Below are positions 2,767 to 47,501 of a stretch of 64,000 nt of DNA, piece by piece (the first letter of the stretch is position 1; every line of letters starts with the position of its first letter). Source of the stretch: Candidatus Arcticimaribacter sp. (GTDB lineage Bacteria > Bacteroidota > Bacteroidia > Flavobacteriales > Flavobacteriaceae); NCBI GenBank assembly GCA_965662875.1, contig CBFIJA010000002.1:5921-69920 (forward strand), in the 5' to 3' direction. The notes beneath the pieces were generated by a model, which saw only the letters and a list, made by a program, of their open reading frames with translations, was not told the DNA's origin and did not search any database. Made by a program: the position numbers and the translations under genes.

Positions 2767-4344
2767 ATGAAATATTACATCCCTATTGTTGCCCTTCTTC
2801 TCGTTTTTTCATGTGCACAAGAAAACCAAAAATCAACAACCGATTGGAACGATTTCCCCTTACTGGAAACTGACATTAAAAGTCTTCAAGAAAGCTATGA
2901 AAACGGAACCAAAACCATTGAAGAAGTTACACAGCTGTATTTAAATCGAATCGAAGAAATTGATCAGAATGGGCCAGCACTACGCTCAATCATTTACATC
3001 AACCCCAATGCACTTGGCATTGCCAAAAAACTAGATCAAGAACTGAAGGAGGGAAAATCCAGAGGGCCACTCCACGGTATTCCTGTAGTACTAAAAGACA
3101 ATATAAACACCTATGATCAACCCACCACTGCCGGTTCTAGAGCACTTGCAGGTTCTATCCCTGAATTAGACAGCGAAGTGGCGAAAAAACTTAGAATTGC
3201 AGGAGCAGTGATTTTAGGAAAAGCCAACTTAAGTGAATGGGCAAATTTTAGGGGTCAAAACTCCAGTAGCGGCTGGAGTGGTATCCAAGGGCAAACCAAA
3301 AATCCATACGTTTTAACCCGTAATCCCTGCGGTTCAAGTTCTGGATCTGGGGTTGCTGTTTCAGCCAACCTAACCCTTTTGGCCATAGGAACTGAAACCA
3401 ATGGATCTATAGTTTGTCCTTCGCACGCCAATGGGGTTGTGGGAATAAAACCTACAGTAGGCTTGATCAGTAGAAGCGGTATCATCCCAATTTCATTTAC
3501 TCAAGACACTGCAGGTCCAATGGCCAGAAGCGTTACAGATGCAAGCATAGCCCTAGGTCTTATGGTAGGGGTAGATTCCACAGACCTTAAAACCCTTGCC
3601 AGTGCTGAAAAGTACAGTACTGACTACAGTGTGTTTTTAAACAAAAACGGACTAGAAGGCAAACGAATTGGGATTTACACTCCCCCCTTTGGTCAAAACA
3701 AAGATGTAGATAACCTCAGCAATAAAGCCATCGCCTTGATGAAAGAAAAGGGGGCTATATTGATTGAAATTGACAAGATCGCTCCAACCGGAACAGGAAG
3801 ACATTCTTTTCAAGTCATGCTGCACGAATACAAAGCTGGACTCAATGAATATTTTGCAGCCTTGGGGGAAAATGCACCTATAAAAACCTTAGAAGAACTG
3901 ATTGCATTCAATGCAAAAGACAGTATTGAATTAAAATACTTTAATCAAGCTTACCTCAAAATGGCTGCCGAGAAAGAAGGCCTGGACAGTGATGCCTATA
4001 AAACAGCATTGGAAAACCTTGAGCGCATGAGTCAACAAGAGGGAATTGACCGGGTGATGAAAGAACACAGCTTAGATGCCTTTATTGCGCCAACAGGGAG
4101 TCCTGCATGGAGTACTGATTGGTTGAATGGAGATAATTTTCACTTGGGGAGCTCATCTCCAGCAGCTTGGGCAGGATACCCAAACATTACCGTTCCTATG
4201 GGCAATGTTCATGGATTACCGGTCGGGCTATCAATATTTGGAACGGCTTGGTCCGAAGGAAAATTAATTGAAATTGCCTATGCTTTTGAGCAAGCAAGTC
4301 AAGCCCGTATCGTTCCCAGCTTTCGAAAAAATGATGCGGAATAA
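2767..4344 (+). CDS. amidase (amidase-signature family), lipoprotein-type signal
   Basis: Amidase signature GSSSGSGVAVS. The start was moved to MKYYIPIVALLLVFSCAQ (signal peptide plus lipobox Cys). The ORF-track start at 2719 looks like an N-terminal over-extension. Confidence 0.85.
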   Translation: MKYYIPIVALLLVFSCAQENQKSTTDWNDFPLLETDIKSLQESYENGTKTIEEVTQLYLNRIEEIDQNGPALRSIIYINPNALGIAKKLDQELKEGKSRGPLHGIPVVLKDNINTYDQPTTAGSRALAGSIPELDSEVAKKLRIAGAVILGKANLSEWANFRGQNSSSGWSGIQGQTKNPYVLTRNPCGSSSGSGVAVSANLTLLAIGTETNGSIVCPSHANGVVGIKPTVGLISRSGIIPISFTQDTAGPMARSVTDASIALGLMVGVDSTDLKTLASAEKYSTDYSVFLNKNGLEGKRIGIYTPPFGQNKDVDNLSNKAIALMKEKGAILIEIDKIAPTGTGRHSFQVMLHEYKAGLNEYFAALGENAPIKTLEELIAFNAKDSIELKYFNQAYLKMAAEKEGLDSDAYKTALENLERMSQQEGIDRVMKEHSLDAFIAPTGSPAWSTDWLNGDNFHLGSSSPAAWAGYPNITVPMGNVHGLPVGLSIFGTAWSEGKLIEIAYAFEQASQARIVPSFRKNDAE

Positions 4345-5294: not shown

Positions 5295-6277
5295 AAAACA
5301 GCCTGCGCAATGGCTTTTATGTTGTCAGATTTCCCCATTGAGTAATAATGTAAAAAGGGAACTCTAGCAGCTTTTAATTCTTTGCTTTGTTCGATGCACC
5401 ATTCTATTCCAACTTGCCTAACTTGGGAATTGTCTTTACATTCCAATACCGCTTTTATAAGATCATCCGGGAGATCTACATGGAAACGATGTGGCAGGGC
5501 ATTCAATTGTTTTTTTGTTGCTAGTGGTTTTAAACCGGGGATAATGGGAACATCAATTCCAGCATCCTTGCATTTGTCTTGAAATTCAAAGAACTTTTTG
5601 TTGTCAAAAAACATTTGTGTAATGATATAATCTGCGCCTGCATCAATTTTCTTTTTCAAGAAATGCAAATCGCTTTCCAAGCTTGGAGCTTCCATATGCT
5701 TTTCTGGATAACCAGACACGCCAATGCAAAAGTCTGTTTTAGACGTATTTTGAATTTCGTCATCCAAATATTTCCCTTGATTTAAATCTGTTATTTGCCC
5801 AACGAGTTCATTGGCATAGGTATGACCGTCTTTATGGGGTTTGAAATACACTTCAGATTTTACAGCATCACCACGAAGGGCTACAACATTGTCGATCCCT
5901 AAAAAATCTAAGTCAATTAAGAAATTTTCTGTATCCTCTTTTGTAAATCCACCACATAATATATGAGGAATGGCATCTACATTGTATTTATTTTGCAAGG
6001 CTGCACAAATCCCCACTGTCCCAGGTCGTTTTCGAATGACATGTTTTTCCAGTAACCCATTTTCCAACTCCTTGTAAACGTATTCTTCTCGATGATAGGT
6101 AACATCAATAAAAGGGGGATTGAATTCCATCAACGGGTCAATCGCAGAATAAATAGACGCTATGTTTTGCCCTTTTAACGGAGGGAGAATCTCAAAGGTG
6201 AATTGAGTGTTGTTCTTTGCTTTGGCAATGTGCTCTGTTACTTTCACGAGGTTTATTTTAGGTTGGGCCTGAGCCAT
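5291..6277 (-). CDS. metF: methylenetetrahydrofolate reductase
   Basis: 328 aa. Motifs FEILPP, VALRGD and ITQMFFD are typical of MetF. Last gene of the methionine cluster. Confidence 0.85.
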
Positions 6278-13752: not shown

Positions 13753-13860
13753 TTAAATAAGTTGCTTTGGGGAAGGATTTGATGATACATCTTGAAAGCA
13801 ACACTGCTTTAGCATTTTTTTTTCGAGGTTTGCAATCAGTCAAATCCTTCCTCGTTTGTG
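13753..13860 (-). promoter_or_regulatory. structured 5' leader of the metK operon (candidate SAM-responsive riboswitch, class unassigned)
   Basis: RNA GGAAGGAUUUGA (13782-13771) and UCAAAUCCUUCC can form a 12-bp helix. An inner hairpin is AAAGCA-GUGU-UGCUUU. GUUGCUUU can instead pair with AAAGCAAC just upstream of the AUG. Confidence 0.4.
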
Positions 13861-30067: not shown

Positions 30068-30149
30068 TGCGGGTGAAGGGACTCGAACCCCCACGCCGTG
30101 AAGCACTAGATCCTAAATCTAGCGTGTCTACCAATTTCACCACACCCGC
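30068..30149 (-). tRNA. tRNA-Leu (anticodon TAG)
   Basis: Hand-folded sequence GCGGGTG-TG-GTGAAATTGGTAGACAC-G-CTAGA-TTTAGGA-TCTAG-long variable arm-GGGGGTTCGAGTCCCTT-CACCCGC-A. The acceptor and anticodon stems pair perfectly. Confidence 0.9.
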
Positions 30150-33906: not shown

Positions 33907-34386
33907 ATGGATCTTATTTATGAAATCGCGGGAATTATCCTTTTACTTTTAGGGGTTATTGGAAGTTTTTTACCGGTACTCCCAGGCCCACTAAGCGGAT
34001 GGCTTGGGCTATTTATAGCCAATCAAAGCACCCGAGTGGATTTTGAAACGTCTTTTATAATTACCACTTTTTGTATCGCCCTTGCTGTTTTTCTATTGGA
34101 TTATATCATTCCTGCCTTGGGAACAAAAAAATTCGGGGGATCCAAAAAAGGGGTTATAGGTTCTACAATTGGATTGGTTTTAGGCTTGCTTTTTTTAGGT
34201 CCCTTGGGTATTATTTTAGGTCCTTTTATAGGTGCATTTTCAGGAGAACTCCTAAATGAACCCGATAAAAAAGTGGCTTTTAAAGCCGCAATTGGCTCTT
34301 TTTTAGGTTTTATCACCGGGGTGATTCTAAAATGCCTTGTTGCTTTAGCCTTTTTGTTTTTGGGGATTTCAGAATATATGAACTAA
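33907..34386 (+). CDS. DUF456-family membrane protein
   Basis: About 159 aa from MDLIYEIAGIILLLLGVIGSFLPVLPGP. Gly-rich TM helices. The ORF-track start at 33826 looks over-extended. Confidence 0.65.
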   Translation: MDLIYEIAGIILLLLGVIGSFLPVLPGPLSGWLGLFIANQSTRVDFETSFIITTFCIALAVFLLDYIIPALGTKKFGGSKKGVIGSTIGLVLGLLFLGPLGIILGPFIGAFSGELLNEPDKKVAFKAAIGSFLGFITGVILKCLVALAFLFLGISEYMN

Positions 34387-34422
34387 TTTTTTTGCCTTTA
34401 AAGAAACCGCTTTTTCGTAACC

Positions 34423-34439
34423 TTCAATCAAACCACAAC
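34423..34439 (-). repeat. solitary CRISPR-repeat-like element (5' GTTGTGGTTTGATTGAA), complementary to the anti-repeat at 37934-37950
   Basis: Pairing with TTCAATCTTATCACAAT gives 13 Watson-Crick pairs, 2 G:U pairs and a 2-nt internal mismatch over 17 nt. It lies 68 nt downstream of the Cas9-like stop on the same strand. Only one copy was seen. The true 3' extent is unknown and could run to about 34404. Confidence 0.5.
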
Positions 34440-34506
34440 ACTATATTTATTTATGAAATCGTAATGGGTTAGGTAGTGTACAAAGCGAACAATGCACAAT
34501 GATGTT

Positions 34507-37500
34507 TTACGCGAAAAAACGGTTCTTTTCTAAAGCATAATCTGTTTTTTTTATTTGACCGATACAGTCTACCTCTACTTTGATGGGATTGTAATTAAAC
34601 CATCCTGTTTTTTTATCGCCAAAATTATTTATCCTTATGTAGTCCGGAAATTCTGTGCTATTGGATGTGGGTTTATAAGCCAATCGAAATTCATAGTATT
34701 TACTGGATAATTTTTGTACTCGGTATAAAATCTTCATCAAATAAGCGTTAGACTCTAAGGCTATGTTTTCCTCCAAACGATCTGCACCCATCAGAAATAA
34801 ATCGTTGGTTTTTAATACCGTAATCAAGGCGTTTTGTTCCGGTTGGGGCACCTCGACAATGGGTTTTCCTTTTGTCATTCTTTGAACTACTTCCCAAAAA
34901 CTGACTACATCTTCATGCAGCTGTCCAGCTATATCCTCATAAATCAATACATGGTGATTGTTTCTAGGGATAACAAATTGATTTTTATGGGCCTTTAATT
35001 TTACTTCCGTATTGAACGCTTCACGAATACGCACCTTTTTAATGGGAACAGGATCTCCCTTTGTGTTAGGCAAAAATAATTTGGGCTTCACCCTTCCTGC
35101 TTTATCTTTTTTGAAAAAAGTGTTTGGCGGGATTTGTTGTTTCCCGTCAAAGTTTTTTATGACCGCTTCTTGCACTAGTTTTTTAACTACTGGATCAACA
35201 ATTTTATCAACTTGATTGATTGATTTGATTTGATTTAAGGGTTTACGAATGTGAAGTGCAGTGACCTTGTTGGGGGAAGTTCGTTTTCCGTAAAAACTCT
35301 CTTTATGCAACATACCACGAACAGAGACATTGTTACTAAACACCTTGATGTCCTCTTTTTTAATCCATTTTTTTCGTGTTGAAAGGATTCTTTTTTGGCT
35401 TTTATAAGAGACTAAAATTTCGTTGAAATGCTTTGTGAAATCTTCAAAATAGTTGTTGTAAGGCCTAGGGAAACTCGTTTTATTTTGGGGCCATTTGTAT
35501 TTATTTCGCTGCTTCAAGCTTTCCAAATGCTCGGTTGTTTTAACTGCGTTGACAAAAGAACGCATAGCGCTCTGACGATAATCCAATGCTTTTGACTTTT
35601 CTTTGTATGAATTCAAAAGCAACCATTGCTCTATCAAATGCTGGGTGGTATTTCCCATAGAAATATTGACTTCTTGAAAAACAATGGACAACACACTTTC
35701 TAAACTTCTAGATATAATGTGCGGATCATTAAACTGTTGTTGTATGATATTGCGTTTGTTGTATTTTTTCACAAAACGCTGAAATTTTGTAAAACTTGCT
35801 GGATGCTGTCTAGTATTGGAGAATTGATACATCAACCGTTTTTTTATTTCCCCCCAATTTTCCATTTGAGTGTTCATAAAATATTCGTGTGGGGTTCTTC
35901 CCTCTAACTCTTCTGCGACTTCGGCAAAACAAAGAACTTTATTGAGGTGGCTGTCGTTCAAGGAAAACTCCCATGGATTGATGTATACAATTCTAATCTC
36001 TTGAGTAAAAAGGGAGGCAATTGGTATGGGTTTGTTTGTGAAAGGGCAAACTTTTTTACACTCTTCAAAGAGGTCGTATTTTAGGATATTCATAGGAGTG
36101 AGGTTCACACCTAATTTTTTGATGATATTGAAATATCGATCTCGGTTTCCTTTTATTCTTTTTTGATCAATTTTATAGATAAAGCGCTGCATCCGATTTA
36201 CTTTTAGGTCCACAGAAAGTTCACAATTGATACTGGATATTGATCCGTACTTTTTAAGCAAAGCATTCAAGACCTTTCGAAGTTCAAAAACACTTTGTAT
36301 TACAATGTTCTTATCTAATTTATGTATCAGTTTGTCCGTTTCTTTGGAAACCTCAAAATACTTTTCAAGGTTCTTATCCCTTTTTTTTGGGGGTATACCA
36401 TAAACTTTCTTGGATTTAAATTGCAATTCTGGACATGAAGCATCGAACCATGACTGAAGTTTTGAAAGTACTTCTTTGGTACTGTTTTCCTTTTTTATCT
36501 TCAATGCTGCAGTTGCAATTTCTGCTTTATTTTCTGCTGAAAGTGTCTCCCAATGGGGCGCAATAGCATTTTTTATACCGCCCAAAAAAACAGCGGTCTT
36601 GTATCGATACCCCTGACGTAAAAAAGGAAGTAAATTTCTACACGCCTTTTTACTCAACAAGGCATACGTTTTATCTAGACTAATTTTCGAAAACTGCTCT
36701 GCACAATATTCATCAAGACCAAACTTTTCTTCTGCATGTTGTTTTAACTTTTCAAGATCGTCAAAAAAATAAAGCGCATGAAAAACATCTTCTTTAAGTT
36801 TTGAATCCATGTTGAACCAATCGGTTCCAAAAAATTTATTTTTTGACATTTCATAGTCGATGAATATTCCTTTAAATATTTCATCATCTCTATAGTTGAA
36901 TGCCTTTTTATCTGGCAGTTGCAGTCTGTTTTTAAGATCTGAAAATTTAAATTTGTAGTTGGATCGTAAAAAAGCAAAAGTCACCCGTCTTTCTTCTTCT
37001 TCAAGGGGTTGGTTATTGTACTGTATTGAATTGATCCATTTCCAGGCTTCTACCTCTTGGCATTCAAAAGAAGATACACAAGCTCTTGTTTTATTTGGTT
37101 CAAGTGAACAATTGCCGACTTTGTGCTTTTGAGACTTTAAGCGCCTAAGAAAAAACACAGCCCCTTTTGGGGTTCTGTCATTTGGATTTCCGATCAGACG
37201 TTCCCTTAAACCCTCTTGGAAATGATAAAATCGAGATTGTATTTCCCATATTTTATGAATTTCATCAAAATACATTTGGGTAGAACAGATACGGTTTCGA
37301 ACCCGTTCCAACTGGTGTGTATAGCTCTTATTCTCTCTCGGCAATAGCTGAAATAAATACTCCCCTAAAGTGTTTTCTTTCACCGATCGTTGAGTTTGTT
37401 CGTAGCCAATTTTACCGTCTTCTTGACTTCCTTTATAGAGCACACTTCCTTTTAGTCTTGAATGGCGTTCGCCAAAACGATACCCCCTACGCTGTGTTAT

Positions 37501-37908
37501 TTGATAAAGTATTCGTCCCAATTCATTCAAGGAAAGCTTATCTGAAACGCCCTTTTTTCGAAGCGCATAGGGATTCATGGACAGCCATTGATCTAACTCA
37601 TCATGCGGAAAATGTTTTTTTTGTTTCCATTGTTTTAGACTTTCTAGAGCTACAGGACACATATTGTGCTGGGCTAAAATTCTAAGTAAATAATACTTCC
37701 TTGATCGAATCCTTGCATGACGGATTCTATGGAGTCGGTAATTTCGTTTACTCTTTTTTTTGGATTGTTCGCGCTTACCCCAACCGAAATTTTCACAGTC
37801 TGGATTGAACCGGTGCACTCCCATTCCCAAAATCTTCTTTCGATCGGTTTCATAAAGGGTCCAGCCGACAGCACTTGCATCCAAATAAATTCCTAGCTTT
37901 TTTGACAT
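34507..37908 (-). CDS. Cas9-like protein (type II-C-like architecture) with substituted HNH and RuvC-III catalytic residues
   Basis: 1133 aa. GIYLDASAVGW (RuvC-I), Arg-rich bridge helix RNYRLHRIRHARIRSRKYYLL, PYALRKK..LGRILYQITQRRGY, NCSLEPNKTRAC...AWKWIN, LSKKACRNLLPFLRQGYRY and INCELSVD (RuvC-II). The HNH-shaped segment is RIVYINPWEFSLNDSHLNKVL...GRTPHEYF. The RuvC-III-shaped segment is DYRQSAMRSFVNAV. Confidence 0.85.
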   Translation of the reverse strand: MSKKLGIYLDASAVGWTLYETDRKKILGMGVHRFNPDCENFGWGKREQSKKKSKRNYRLHRIRHARIRSRKYYLLRILAQHNMCPVALESLKQWKQKKHFPHDELDQWLSMNPYALRKKGVSDKLSLNELGRILYQITQRRGYRFGERHSRLKGSVLYKGSQEDGKIGYEQTQRSVKENTLGEYLFQLLPRENKSYTHQLERVRNRICSTQMYFDEIHKIWEIQSRFYHFQEGLRERLIGNPNDRTPKGAVFFLRRLKSQKHKVGNCSLEPNKTRACVSSFECQEVEAWKWINSIQYNNQPLEEEERRVTFAFLRSNYKFKFSDLKNRLQLPDKKAFNYRDDEIFKGIFIDYEMSKNKFFGTDWFNMDSKLKEDVFHALYFFDDLEKLKQHAEEKFGLDEYCAEQFSKISLDKTYALLSKKACRNLLPFLRQGYRYKTAVFLGGIKNAIAPHWETLSAENKAEIATAALKIKKENSTKEVLSKLQSWFDASCPELQFKSKKVYGIPPKKRDKNLEKYFEVSKETDKLIHKLDKNIVIQSVFELRKVLNALLKKYGSISSINCELSVDLKVNRMQRFIYKIDQKRIKGNRDRYFNIIKKLGVNLTPMNILKYDLFEECKKVCPFTNKPIPIASLFTQEIRIVYINPWEFSLNDSHLNKVLCFAEVAEELEGRTPHEYFMNTQMENWGEIKKRLMYQFSNTRQHPASFTKFQRFVKKYNKRNIIQQQFNDPHIISRSLESVLSIVFQEVNISMGNTTQHLIEQWLLLNSYKEKSKALDYRQSAMRSFVNAVKTTEHLESLKQRNKYKWPQNKTSFPRPYNNYFEDFTKHFNEILVSYKSQKRILSTRKKWIKKEDIKVFSNNVSVRGMLHKESFYGKRTSPNKVTALHIRKPLNQIKSINQVDKIVDPVVKKLVQEAVIKNFDGKQQIPPNTFFKKDKAGRVKPKLFLPNTKGDPVPIKKVRIREAFNTEVKLKAHKNQFVIPRNNHHVLIYEDIAGQLHEDVVSFWEVVQRMTKGKPIVEVPQPEQNALITVLKTNDLFLMGADRLEENIALESNAYLMKILYRVQKLSSKYYEFRLAYKPTSNSTEFPDYIRINNFGDKKTGWFNYNPIKVEVDCIGQIKKTDYALEKNRFFA

Positions 37909-37933: not shown

Positions 37934-38004
37934 TTCAATCTTATCACAATAAGGCTTTATGCCGTAGATAAAATTCTTAAATCCCGCTTCGGTGGGATTT
38001 TTTT
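37934..38004 (+). ncRNA. tracrRNA-like small RNA (anti-repeat, nexus hairpin, UUCG-capped terminator)
   Basis: UUCAAUCUUAUCACAAU-AAGGCUUUAUGCCGU-AGAUAAAAUUCUU-AAAUCCCGC-UUCG-GUGGGAUUU-UUUU. The CACAAU-AAGGC..GCCGU module parallels the SpCas9 AAAAU-AAGGCUAGUCCGU nexus. The 5' end is inferred from the promoter only. Confidence 0.6.
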
Positions 38005-38413
38005 ATAAATTTTCATTGATTTTTCTCTCTTCCTCGCCCAGCATACCATAATGGTATTTTAATAACAAGGGGTAAAACCTCCATATTGAATTTCCTGTCA
38101 CTTCTTTGGCTTTGTGGAAGGCCAATTCGTTTTTTTCTAAAAAATCTAAAGTTTTACTTTTTACAGTCTCTTCCATATAATTTATGGGATCCAATAGACG
38201 TAATCTAAACCCTTTACGAACGGCTGTATACATATTTTGAGCGTCTAATTTTTGCAATAAAGAATGTTTCACTTTGTAAAATTTGGGAGAATTAACTTCT
38301 AATAACTTTTGCAATTGTTGTTCACTCATTCCTAAAGCATAGGAACGCAACATTAGAAACTCTTTTGTAGTTAATTTTTTTGAGTCATTTTGGGTCGGTA
38401 TATTTTTACTCAT
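38003..38413 (-). CDS. small LuxR/FixJ-type HTH protein
   Basis: 136 aa. LTTKEFLMLRSYALGMSEQQLQKLLEVNSPKFYKVKHSLLQKLDAQNMYTAVRKGF fits the LuxR C-terminal HTH pattern (LT.RE..vL.l.a.G.s..eia..L..s..TV..h...i..KL...n...av). No receiver domain. Confidence 0.65.
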   Translation of the reverse strand: MSKNIPTQNDSKKLTTKEFLMLRSYALGMSEQQLQKLLEVNSPKFYKVKHSLLQKLDAQNMYTAVRKGFRLRLLDPINYMEETVKSKTLDFLEKNELAFHKAKEVTGNSIWRFYPLLLKYHYGMLGEEERKINENL

Positions 38414-38608
38414 AAGTAGTGATATATATAGTGTTATAGCATCAAAAATGACACTCTTACCAAAACTTTCAATGCTACTTGTAAGGGCCGGTTGGTTTAA
38501 ATGGTTATCTGGTCAAATCGTGTTCTAGGTGGTTATAATTTTTTGTAAGCGTTGTTTCTTGTCGTATTTTGCATTTCGTTATCGTATTTTTTGGTGTATT
38601 TTAGCACC

Positions 38609-38812
38609 ATGGAACTTTTTCTAATCTCATTTGTTTTAATCGGTCTTGCTTTTGCGGGAATTGCCATCAAGATTTTGGTAAAGAAAGAAGGTAAGTTTGC
38701 AGGTACGTGTGCCAGTCAAAGCCCTTTTCTCAATAAGGACAATGAACCTTGTGGTTTCTGCGGAAAGCTCCCAGATGAACAGGAATGCCGAAATCCTGAA
38801 GTGATAAAATAA
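38609..38812 (+). CDS. small membrane protein with a Cys-rich tail (NqrM/DUF539-like?)
   Basis: 67 aa from MELFLISFVLIGLAFAGIAI. One TM helix, then GTCAS..x14..CGFCG..x8..C. The family assignment is tentative. Confidence 0.4.
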   Translation: MELFLISFVLIGLAFAGIAIKILVKKEGKFAGTCASQSPFLNKDNEPCGFCGKLPDEQECRNPEVIK

Positions 38813-38852
38813 AGCGGCATTCCACAAAAAAATCTCTATCTTCGGTTTAGGT

Positions 38853-39416
38853 ATGGAGGATAAAGCCATTGCGAACGCCATTTTACTTGCCAAAAAAAAC
38901 AATCAAAAAGCTTTTGCTCTGCTTTATGATGCCTATTGGGAGTATTTGTTTTCTTATTTGCTCAAAAAAAATATCCCTGAAGATCTAGCAGAAGACCTTG
39001 CCATTAAAACCTTTTCTAAAGCATTTGATAAAATAGCGACTTACGACGCTAAGTATACATTCAAAACTTGGCTCGTTACCATTTCCAAAAATCTTCACAT
39101 TGACCAACACCGAAAAGACAAAAAGCAAATTCAATCTAGAAATGAATCGCTAGAAATCAGTCAAATTCACAATGTGATGGATGAAAACCCTTCGCCAGAA
39201 GATTTGTTGATTACAACGCAAAACCTCAAAGGTTTACTAAAACAAATAAAAGGATTAAAACCGGTATACAGCAAGGTAATCAAGCTTCGCTATCTACAAC
39301 AGTTAAGCTATAAAGAAATAAGTGATGAGATGAATTTACCGCTCAACACAGTGAAAGTAACACTTCTAAGGGCCAAAAAAATATTGGCTGAAAAAATCAT
39401 CAATGAAAAAATTTAA
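38853..39416 (+). CDS. ECF-type RNA polymerase sigma-70 family factor
   Basis: 187 aa. Region 2 (DLAEDLAIKTF...FKTWLVTISKNLHIDQHRK) and region 4 (KLRYLQQLSYKEISDEMNLPLNTVKVTLLRAKK). Confidence 0.85.
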   Translation: MEDKAIANAILLAKKNNQKAFALLYDAYWEYLFSYLLKKNIPEDLAEDLAIKTFSKAFDKIATYDAKYTFKTWLVTISKNLHIDQHRKDKKQIQSRNESLEISQIHNVMDENPSPEDLLITTQNLKGLLKQIKGLKPVYSKVIKLRYLQQLSYKEISDEMNLPLNTVKVTLLRAKKILAEKIINEKI

Positions 39417-40614
39417 TCTTCAAAAACTGGGTCCAGGCTTACTCTTTGCTGGTGCGGCCATTGGGGTTTCGCATTTGGTACAATCAACACGGGCTGGAGC
39501 TGATTTTGGCTGGGGTTTGTTGTGGGCTTTAGTGTTGTCCAACCTTTTCAAGTATCCCTTTTTTCAATTTGGCCCACGGTTTGCCTTGGCGACAAATAAA
39601 AATTTACTGGAAGGGTATTTTCACCTCGGAAAGCATTATCTGTGGCTCTATTTTTTTCTAAACATGGCTACAATGTTTACCATTCAAACTGCGGTAACCA
39701 TTGTTACTGCAGGACTTGCCTCTTCCATTTTTGGAATAACGGCTGACTTGGTTGCATGGAGTGCATTAATTACCGCTCTTTGCCTAATTCTTTTACTTCT
39801 TGGGAAATATAAACTCTTGGACAAGGCCATAAAAGCCATTATTTTACTTTTGACCCTATGCACCCTAATCGCTGTAGTTTGGGCAGGACACAAAAACACA
39901 TCCCCTTTAGAATTTTCACAAATAATTCCTCACGGAAACGAACTTCTTTTTTTAATTGCATTTATGGGATGGATGCCTGCTCCTCTGGACATTTCCATAT
40001 GGCAATCTTTATGGGCTTTGGAAAAGAAAAAAACGGAAAAGCTCAGCTATAAAGAGGCTTTATTTGACTTTAATGTTGGCTATATCGTTACGGTAGTACT
40101 TGGAGTTTGTTTTGTTGGACTGGGTGCTTTTGTCATGTATGGATCGGGGACTCGTTTTTCTAACTCAGGAGGAGAATTTGCCAATCAGTTGGTTGCATTG
40201 TATACCCAAACACTTGGCGAAGAACTTTATGTTTTTATTGCCATCGCTGCCTTTACAACCATGTTTAGTACGACTTTGACAACGCTGGACGCCTCTCCCA
40301 GAGCAATGGAGAAAACCATGAATTTACTATTGCCAAAAATTAATTTTTTCACTTATCGCTTTTGGATTTTAGTTTTGGCCAGCGGAACCCTCTTTATTTT
40401 TGCTTTTTTAGCATCAGAAATGGGGAGATTAGTAGCTATAGCTACAACCTTGTCTTTTATCACTGCACCCTTGTATGCTTTTTTAAATTTCCGCTTGGTA
40501 ACAGGAGATCAAATGCCCCTAGATGCACGTCCTAAAAAAGGCTTATTGGTTTTAAGCTTAGTAGGTTTACTCTTTTTAAGCGGCTTTGCGATTGGCTTTC
40601 TCTTCACCCTATAA
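39403..40614 (+). CDS. polytopic membrane transporter, NRAMP-like divalent cation transporter family (tentative)
   Basis: 403 aa with about 11 TM segments. The N-terminal [25 protein letters not shown] resembles short Bacteroidetes Nramp-family proteins. Overlaps the sigma gene by 14 nt. Confidence 0.55.
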
Positions 40615-47426: not shown

Positions 47427-47501
47427 TGGGCGCTGAGGGATTCGAACCCCCGACCCCCTCGGTGTAAACGAGGTGCTCTGAACCAACTGAGCTAAGCGCC
47501 C
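47427..47501 (-). tRNA. tRNA-Val (anticodon TAC)
   Basis: Hand-folded sequence GGGCGCT-TA-GCTCAGTTGGTTCAGAGC-A-CCTCG-TTTACAC-CGAGG-GGGTC-GGGGGTTCGAATCCCTC-AGCGCCC-A. Confidence 0.9.

Follow-up and report, generated by a model that had tools for sequence, protein, structure and literature searches.

Introduction

What does a Cas9 protein recognize once its nuclease motifs have degenerated and it has kept a single guide whose end does not vary? The question is raised by a locus of Candidatus Arcticimaribacter sp., a member of the Flavobacteriaceae, which lies within the 64,000 nucleotides (nt) of contig CBFIJA010000002.1 that were analyzed here (positions 5,921 to 69,920 of the contig; hereafter, the window). 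In this locus a gene for a nuclease-dead Cas9 (dCas9) is preceded by a small gene for a helix-turn-helix (HTH) protein of the LuxR/GerE type, and the leader of the HTH gene carries a short motif that is conserved among relatives and is complementary to the repeat-proximal end of the guide. This leader motif gives the fixed-guide dead Cas9 a concrete target hypothesis. The interpretation that we rank first, while holding it only tentatively, is that the complex of dCas9 and its CRISPR RNA, or crRNA, could recognize the leader by the seed only and so exert feedback on the HTH-dCas9 operon. A limited literature search found no described natural dead Cas9 in the Flavobacteria.

A Nuclease-Dead Cas9 with an Invariant Guide End

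The Cas9 homologue of the window (34507..37908, minus strand; 1133 amino acids) matches both the TIGR01865 Cas9 family (E 2.4e-103) and the Pfam family HNH_4. Its HNH and RuvC-III motifs, as read from the protein sequence, are substituted or degenerate, and by these motifs it is a natural nuclease-dead Cas9. The RuvC-I residue is variable across the dead clade (D, N, G, S, Y, E), and the Asp has been lost in many members. The architecture is that of type II-C, with the TIGR01865 match, an anti-repeat upstream of the gene and a repeat in the crRNA orientation; no cas1 or cas2 open reading frame (ORF) adjoins the window's cas9, and in place of a spacer array there is a single repeat only. This remnant (34404..34439, minus strand) lies downstream of cas9 on the same strand, begins GTTGTGGTTTGATTGAAGG at 34439, and has the start and orientation of the 36-nt repeat in the arrays of active relatives; the sequence upstream of it on the cas9 strand reads ...CGATTTCATAAATAAATATAGT. 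The segment in the position of a spacer, which we call the guide (34440..34473, minus strand), consists of a variable 5' part and an invariant repeat-side part of 12 nt, AATAAATATAGT (34440-34451). A trans-activating CRISPR RNA (tracrRNA) gene is predicted at 37934..38004 on the plus strand; its anti-repeat, CTTATCACAATAAGG, which is conserved among the loci of relatives, is situated between the HTH stop codon and the start of cas9.

The HTH gene (38003..38413, minus strand; an ORF of 136 amino acids) is the first gene upstream of the dead cas9 and has the same orientation, the gap between the two being 94 nt. Pfam GerE (PF00196) is matched by 12 of 17 orthologues of its product, at a best E of 2.7e-8; the protein of the window falls below the Pfam threshold, yet it aligns throughout with the GerE-matching orthologues.

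We gathered ~100 Cas9 loci by a search of 401 genomes of the family and a scan of public genomes, and among the public loci the genus of the window is Candidatus Arcticimaribacter. The active relatives keep GLDLGTNS in RuvC-I and carry the repeat GTTGTGGTTTGATTAAAGATTAGA... in arrays whose spacers vary in the ordinary way. Two dead-Cas9 clades stand apart from them. Group 1 comprises ~30 loci, including that of the window, each with one repeat, and in these ~30 loci AATAAATATAGT stands, without a single change, directly before GTTGTGG, while the Cas9 proteins encoded there are only 35-49% identical; outside the window's genus guide positions 12-19 are conserved as well. An HTH ORF lies upstream of dCas9 in every complete group-1 locus but one, L037. 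Group 2 (L006, L017-L020 and L079-L110) is without the HTH ORF and has, downstream of cas9, two truncated repeats (ATTGTGATTTGAT) that are preceded by the conserved sequences AGTTAAAATTT and (A/G)GTATAGT. One group-1 locus, L038, from an Arcticimaribacter metagenome-assembled genome, has two identical guide-plus-repeat units set 185 nt apart, 98 and 283 nt past the cas9 stop codon, where its relatives have one.

A Conserved Motif in the Leader of the HTH Gene

The leaders of 18 distinct HTH genes were extracted, and the 45 nt upstream of each were searched for shared words with the guide left out of account. Among gapped words the best conserved was ACTA.AT, which occurs in 16 of the 18 leaders, within ~25 nt of the ATG and in several genera; the next-best word that is not a shifted reading of it was present in 6 of 18. 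The leader flanks themselves are not alignable between genera. The full motif, ACTAnAT(T/C)TAT, ends 0-12 nt before the HTH ATG and takes the form ACTAAATTTAT in most genera and ACTATAT(C/A)TAT in the genus of the window, where it reads ACTATATATAT on the gene-sense strand (38422..38432, minus strand) and ends 8 nt before the ATG. L046 is an exception, with only a shifted copy of the motif that has one base deleted. In this genome at large ACTA.AT shows no enrichment before genes: it is found in only 2.2% of the upstream regions and ranks 20th among 60 permutations, and ACTA is not enriched before genes either.

This word and the last 7 nt of the guide, which are flush with the repeat junction, are reverse complements. 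When the leaders are compared with the last 11 nt of the guide, 10 of 11 positions agree in 8 of the 18 loci and, L046 apart, 7-9 of 11 in the others. All 2310 composition-preserving permutations of the 11-mer were scored on the 18 leaders, and the true seed came second, both on the summed best score and on the count of loci with at least 10/11 (P ~9e-4); with both strands counted it was second of 4620 (P ~4e-4). Judged from these comparisons, the relation of motif and guide is unlikely to be accidental, roughly at the 0.001-0.01 level after allowing for analyst choices. Apart from the leader motif, we found no conserved site in orthologous position with complementarity to the invariant end of the guide.

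The observed part of the case is that the motif is conserved, where it lies and that it is complementary to the guide end, together with these statistics. By its conservation across genera, the leader element is real and selected, and it belongs to the leader of the HTH gene rather than being a chance repeat or the end of a cassette. It precedes the HTH gene, the first of the two co-oriented genes, and lies within 12 nt of the start codon, a geometry in which dCas9 roadblocks and antisense control both work. In predicted RNA folds of six leaders from other genera (the leader of the window was not among them) the motif and the AUG are unpaired. A single case, and a weak one, comes from genome G395, where the sole junction-proximal change, A to G, would form a wobble pair with the terminal U of the guide.

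Short inverted repeats of differing sequence (for example, GAGGAA-N4-TTCCTC, GGGA-N4-TCCC and TTTTC-N4-GAAAA) are found 2-7 nt upstream of the motif in L003, L016, L039, L060 and L076. The hairpins are individually not significant in these five leaders, as 8-32 of 200 shuffles fold as well, and L045 has no convincing inverted repeat (73 of 200 shuffles fold as well). By analogy with the dCas12f loci, such repeats could be operators of the HTH protein.

The Match within a Single Genome

The element first came to notice as a resemblance of two blocks of the window, CATAAATAAATATAGTGTTGTGG on the minus strand (34455-34433) and CATAAGTAGTGATATATATAGTGTTATAGC on the plus strand (38411-38440), and the letters and coordinates of both blocks are as claimed. 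Recomputation gave the same identity of 15 of 18 positions between 34433-34450 and 38422-38439; the 10-mer ATATAGTGTT is exact in both blocks and has only these two occurrences in the window. The last 11 nt of the guide, ATAAATATAGT, agree with 38422-38432 at 10 of 11 positions, the mismatch being at position 8 from the repeat junction, and the site does lie 9-19 nt upstream of the HTH start codon (CAT at 38411-38413, in a minus-strand ORF). The guide would pair, as had been stated, with the non-template strand of the HTH gene and, as we add, with its mRNA.

How much this match means by itself is another matter. The shuffle control that the original prediction called for gives an expectation of 0.07 per shuffle of the window for the 10-mer, and to that extent it favors the match; set against the genome-wide background, the match becomes unremarkable. 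Exact words of at least 10 nt shared with the 67-nt guide/repeat unit occur in 6.4% of all 195-nt upstream regions and in 8.6% of the AT-rich ones. The 11-nt seed is matched at 10/11 or better by 5 other sites in the window (1.9 expected from shuffles), and in the genome as a whole by 56 other sites, plus 6 exact 11-mers. An inverted-repeat search of the same 5.2 kb yielded 85 pairs, and the flagged pair was not among the 25 longest. The uniqueness of the 10-mer must be set against the many words that were available to choose from. It had been cautioned that 3 nt of the 10-mer belong to the repeat side: these are the GTT that forms the first 3 nt of 38433..38440, and they do extend the match to a 10-mer, yet they are not conserved in relatives. 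Taken alone in this genome, the match is not clearly beyond chance.

Internal Deletions and the Ends of the Locus

The original prediction had offered a second interpretation, that an inserted cassette of ~4 kb (34.43-38.44 kb), which we also considered as a mobile one, has the two blocks as its terminal inverted repeats. All that speaks for it is the inverted orientation of the blocks flanking the cas9 and HTH genes, and two relatives in which the interior of the locus has been lost make it very improbable. G136, a complete genome of the same genus, lacks dCas9 and the tracrRNA and retains both blocks; in its locus (L033, G136:C1:713585-713857) the order is the DUF456-like gene, a guide/repeat unit (identity of 93.5% across 62 nt), what is left of the N-terminal part of the HTH gene together with the leader motif, the membrane-protein gene and the ECF-sigma gene (ECF, extracytoplasmic function). 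G184 (L152, G184:C19, locus 1486-2160) has a second, independent internal deletion, which joins the HTH ORF in frame with the final ~50 codons of cas9 and again keeps the guide unit and the leader. The synteny comparison that had been suggested thus places the junctions elsewhere than at the blocks, with endpoints that fall within the HTH gene and a little beyond the guide. Both blocks lie outside the deleted segments, and they are therefore not cassette ends.

Other features of the locus point the same way. The same flanks, DUF456 on one side and the small membrane-protein and ECF-sigma genes on the other, are found in at least 5 genera, at all the HTH-bearing loci examined. The cas9 and HTH genes are the only long ORFs of the 4 kb, where the family searches did not extend to shorter ORFs, and in relatives the match between the blocks shrinks to 7-11 nt. 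Evidently, the small marine genomes of this group are losing the dead Cas9 repeatedly.

A Possible Promoter Box or Independent Leader Element

A motif so close to a start codon might simply have a function of its own, as the -7 box of a short-leader transcript or as a translation-initiation or leader element, and its likeness to the guide would then be a coincidence aided by AT-richness. We consider this a possible explanation, although a rather doubtful one. The commonest form of the leader contains TAAATTTA and the complement of the guide contains TATATTTA, both of which are like the Bacteroidetes -7 box, and this resemblance tells against recognition by the guide. In the genome of the window TAnnTTTA, like TAnnTTTG, peaks 15-25 nt before start codons and so has the behavior of a -7 box. 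Upstream of ORFs there is an enrichment of sites that agree with the guide complement at 10/11 or better (13/1808, 3 exact), which is explained by -7-box-like sequence. The orthologues of one such gene, an antiporter, carry the box with or without dCas9, and a phage contig family has the same 19-mer ~24 nt upstream of a gene start.

Several details of the leader motif speak against a -7 box, however. Its invariant core, ACTAnAT, differs from TAnnTTTG; the AC is outside the general -7 context, and the TTT has been lost in the genus of the window, which has TATATCTA or TATATATA. The gap between motif and ATG is 0-12 nt, compared with the 15-25 nt usual for a -7 box, and in L003, L038, G136 and L045 the motif abuts the ATG (0-1 nt gap), which is too close for it to be the -7 box of the gene. 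By eye, there is no consistent -33 TTG upstream of it, and ACTA.AT is not generally enriched upstream of genes. As for coincidence, the 10-mer within the window is not significant alone, and if both boxes are assumed to be in register, 3 of 30 arrangements of the remaining letters agree as well by our own enumeration (P ~0.1), which again weighs against recognition by the guide; the rank of the true seed, second of 2310 permutations, speaks on the other side.

Some leaders elsewhere are identical to the guide complement: in G000, those at C25:16754 (-), C84:3141 (+), C17:9907 (+) and C15:14460-14483 are of a ACTATATTT(AT)ATG-like form. The genes with guide-complement leaders include a cation-antiporter-like gene and an 82-amino-acid XRE-like ORF, matched at 19/24 across its start codon. 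A regulon of such genes was considered and rejected: -7-box-like sequence explains the enrichment, and the box of the antiporter is independent of dCas9. These leaders probably reflect -7-box-like promoters rather than a regulon.

Proposed Autoregulation by a Fixed Guide

In the mechanism that we rank first, a single fixed crRNA and the tracrRNA would be loaded into the nuclease-dead Cas9, and the complex would recognize the leader via the 7-11 repeat-proximal nt only, its pairing in vivo accommodating one mismatch. The result would presumably be a negative feedback on an operon made up of the HTH gene and dCas9, provided that the two are co-transcribed. The target may be the transcript 5' of the AUG, so that translation initiation would be blocked, or else PAM-relaxed DNA (PAM, protospacer-adjacent motif), so that RNA polymerase would be blocked just after the promoter. 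Binding at the RNA level or to PAM-relaxed DNA would fit better than canonical targeting, given the lack of a conserved PAM base and the antisense relation of the guide to the mRNA at the AUG. A fuller version of this proposal is that of a CRISPR-interference feedback loop in marine Flavobacteriaceae, in which PAM-independent binding by 7-11 nt sets the level of the HTH regulator and the HTH protein is the output of the system; so specific a scheme we hold to be doubtful.

The suggestion that the site is an autoregulatory operator had been made from the window alone, and it has stood the comparison in part. In its favor are a motif in 16 of 18 loci and the complementarity of this motif to the invariant guide end; what it lacks are a conserved PAM, a seed free of a fixed mismatch, a match beyond 11 nt and a counterpart in group 2. 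These and some related points weigh against the proposal, and we give them together. At the place where a Cas9 PAM would be (GTTATAGC at 38433..38440 on the plus strand of the window) conservation was sought across 16 loci and found at 0 of 12 PAM-side positions. The PAM-interacting domain of Cas9 lies in the C-terminal region, and this region of the dCas9 is well conserved, though no PAM base of the leader is. One mismatch in the seed is fixed clade by clade, at position 5 counted from the junction (T or G for A) in most genera and at position 8 in the genus of the window, and because of these mismatches the invariant part of the target is only ACTA-AT, that is, six of the last seven positions. 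No pairing was found beyond 11 nt, where the identity of 30% is random. Conservation is much stronger in the guide than in the site, guide positions 12-19 being without a counterpart in the leader, and the guide-leader duplex is nearly all A-U, with one G-C pair.

Two comparisons between clades also belong among the points against it. In group 2, whose guide end is related (GTATAGT), there is no complementary site upstream of cas9 (P 0.47 and 0.91), nor any conserved complementary site within the available flanks of ~1.5-3 kb. In L037, on the Candidatus Arcticimaribacter chromosome OZ255841.1 (locus 2800-3000), dCas9 is intact and the tracrRNA and the guide end TAAATAAATATAGT are kept; both the HTH gene and the upstream ACTA.AT are missing, so that the guide end is retained without its proposed cis target. 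Covariation of the leader with the variable 5' part of the guide was also looked for, and none was found.

Some of the same evidence would be accounted for if the leader motif and the guide end were two sites for one protein, most simply the LuxR/GerE-type HTH protein, with ACTAnAT as a heptamer half-site. The HTH protein would then autoregulate its own leader and bind the crRNA gene, and the similarity would be real and yet not RNA-guided. Six fixed bases around one free position are typical of a protein half-site, and the free position is that of the guide mismatch; there is no conserved PAM, nor any match outside the core. Some leaders have two direct copies (ACTAAAT and ACTATAC in L005; ACTAGAT and ACTATAA in L055). 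In the HTH-less clade the guide end reads ACTATAC, departing from ACTAnAT at the last base, and at dCas12f loci the HTH protein binds immediately upstream of the gene that encodes it (PMC13472631). Set against this, we saw no dyad or second half-site at the crRNA gene, and a site at the spacer-repeat junction is without obvious regulatory logic; the HTH-less clade keeps TATAGT beside the repeat, and L037 keeps the guide end without the HTH gene. On the whole, we judge a shared protein operator unlikely.

What depends on the choice can be simply put. If the autoregulation by dCas9 that we propose is right, it would suggest that a dead Cas9 can recognize its target without a PAM or at the level of RNA. 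If it is wrong, the HTH gene probably has in this motif its operator or a promoter element, and the target of the guide would have to be sought elsewhere.

Other Candidate Targets

A conserved target elsewhere in the genome was sought with the 13-mer AAATAAATATAGT at no more than one mismatch, and was rejected: in five genomes the 13-mer was no commoner than its reversed control, and the genes adjoining its sites were not orthologous between these genomes. The best matches of 20 and 24 nt in the genome (on C15 at the start codon of the 82-amino-acid XRE-like ORF, and on C6 inside a gene) number 2, where ~3 are expected.

The neighboring DUF456-like gene shares an identity of 15 nt with the 5' part of the guide (33914-33928 and 34447-34461 of the window), over codons 3-8 of the gene. 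As a target this too was rejected, since the congener G395 shares no more than 10 nt and the other genera share nothing, and the identity is PAM-distal, with no seed match. It is probably a genus-specific chance identity, or at most an antisense contact.

A phage or virus protospacer was a further candidate. The scan of viral contigs with the 19-mer TTCATTAAATAAATATAGT gave 9 matches in 4 distinct viral sequences, where by our own rough estimate chance would give ~10; the matches are thus at chance level, with one in a promoter-like context, and the candidate was set aside. The IMG/VR contigs L236, L237, L241 and L243, which are one viral contig family from four samples, carry the 19-mer (for example, at L237:7993-8011) in an intergenic position ~24 nt upstream of a gene of 280 amino acids and just after an ORF of 633 amino acids, where it is likely to be a promoter.

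Neighboring Genes and Other Features of the Window

The DUF456-like gene (33907..34386, plus strand), for which the label of a membrane protein is putative, is convergent with cas9 and is the constant neighbor at every dead-Cas9 locus examined. On the other side of the locus (38609-40614) are genes for a small Cys-rich membrane protein, an ECF sigma factor (38853-39416) and an NRAMP-like protein, divergent from the HTH gene. These three are conserved neighbors in group 1 and are still present in G136, which is without dCas9; their closeness to the HTH-dCas9 genes recalls the dCas12f-sigmaE loci, a likeness that does not imply a functional link. An Rfam scan of the window found a SAM-II riboswitch (75.6 bits) and two tRNA genes, at 13799-13859, 30068-30149 and 47427-47501, all on the minus strand.

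Comparison with Known Systems

The proposed loop would have several partial precedents. The Cas9 of Francisella novicida, together with scaRNA and tracrRNA, reportedly represses endogenous promoters by partial complementarity, a finding attributed to Ratner and colleagues in 2019. Common to that case and the one proposed here would be a CRISPR-associated small RNA outside an array, a short complementarity (there ~11-15 nt) to a 5' untranslated region or promoter, and an interference at the level of transcription. However, the Francisella enzyme is active and PAM-dependent and targets a lipoprotein operon, whereas here the sole conserved candidate is the operon's own leader, and there is no PAM. 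The type II-C Cas9s of Campylobacter jejuni and Neisseria meningitidis bind and cleave RNA independently of a PAM. They are of the same lineage as the protein described here, whose guide is likewise complementary to an endogenous mRNA, and a similar ability would explain the absence of a PAM in the leader; those enzymes are active and cleave RNA, however, and it is only by analogy with them that RNA binding by this dead Cas9 may be supposed.

Closer in its logic is the tracr-L of Streptococcus pyogenes, in which an 11-nt match makes Cas9 repress its own promoter (Workman et al. 2021; 10.1101/2020.05.21.102756). Both cases would have a natural guide from outside an array, a short match in the regulatory region of their own operon (here 7-11 nt, in the leader) and repression without cleavage. 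The present Cas9 differs in being constitutively dead and in having as its guide a one-spacer crRNA remnant rather than a tracrRNA isoform; its match has one fixed mismatch and no conserved PAM, an HTH regulator is the first gene of the operon, and the system is known here from sequence alone.

The nearest likeness in gene content is with the dCas12f loci of Flavobacteria that have an HTH gene, whose guides are predicted to autoregulate their own operon (Nature 2026, PMC13472631); the dCas12f system recruits sigmaE to activate transcription and needs a 5'-G target-adjacent motif (PMC13472631). Both occur in the same phylum and combine a dead effector that has a conserved guide with a small HTH gene and guide seeds resembling sequence beside it, and an ECF sigma gene adjoins the HTH-dCas9 locus too. 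The effector, however, belongs to the Cas9 family here and to Cas12f there, and the ECF sigma gene of our locus runs divergently, occurs also in relatives that lack dCas9 and is absent beside the HTH-less dCas9 clade. If the feedback that we propose does operate, Cas9 would have been exapted as a self-regulating, RNA-guided repressor wired to a transcription factor, in parallel with TldR and dCas12f.

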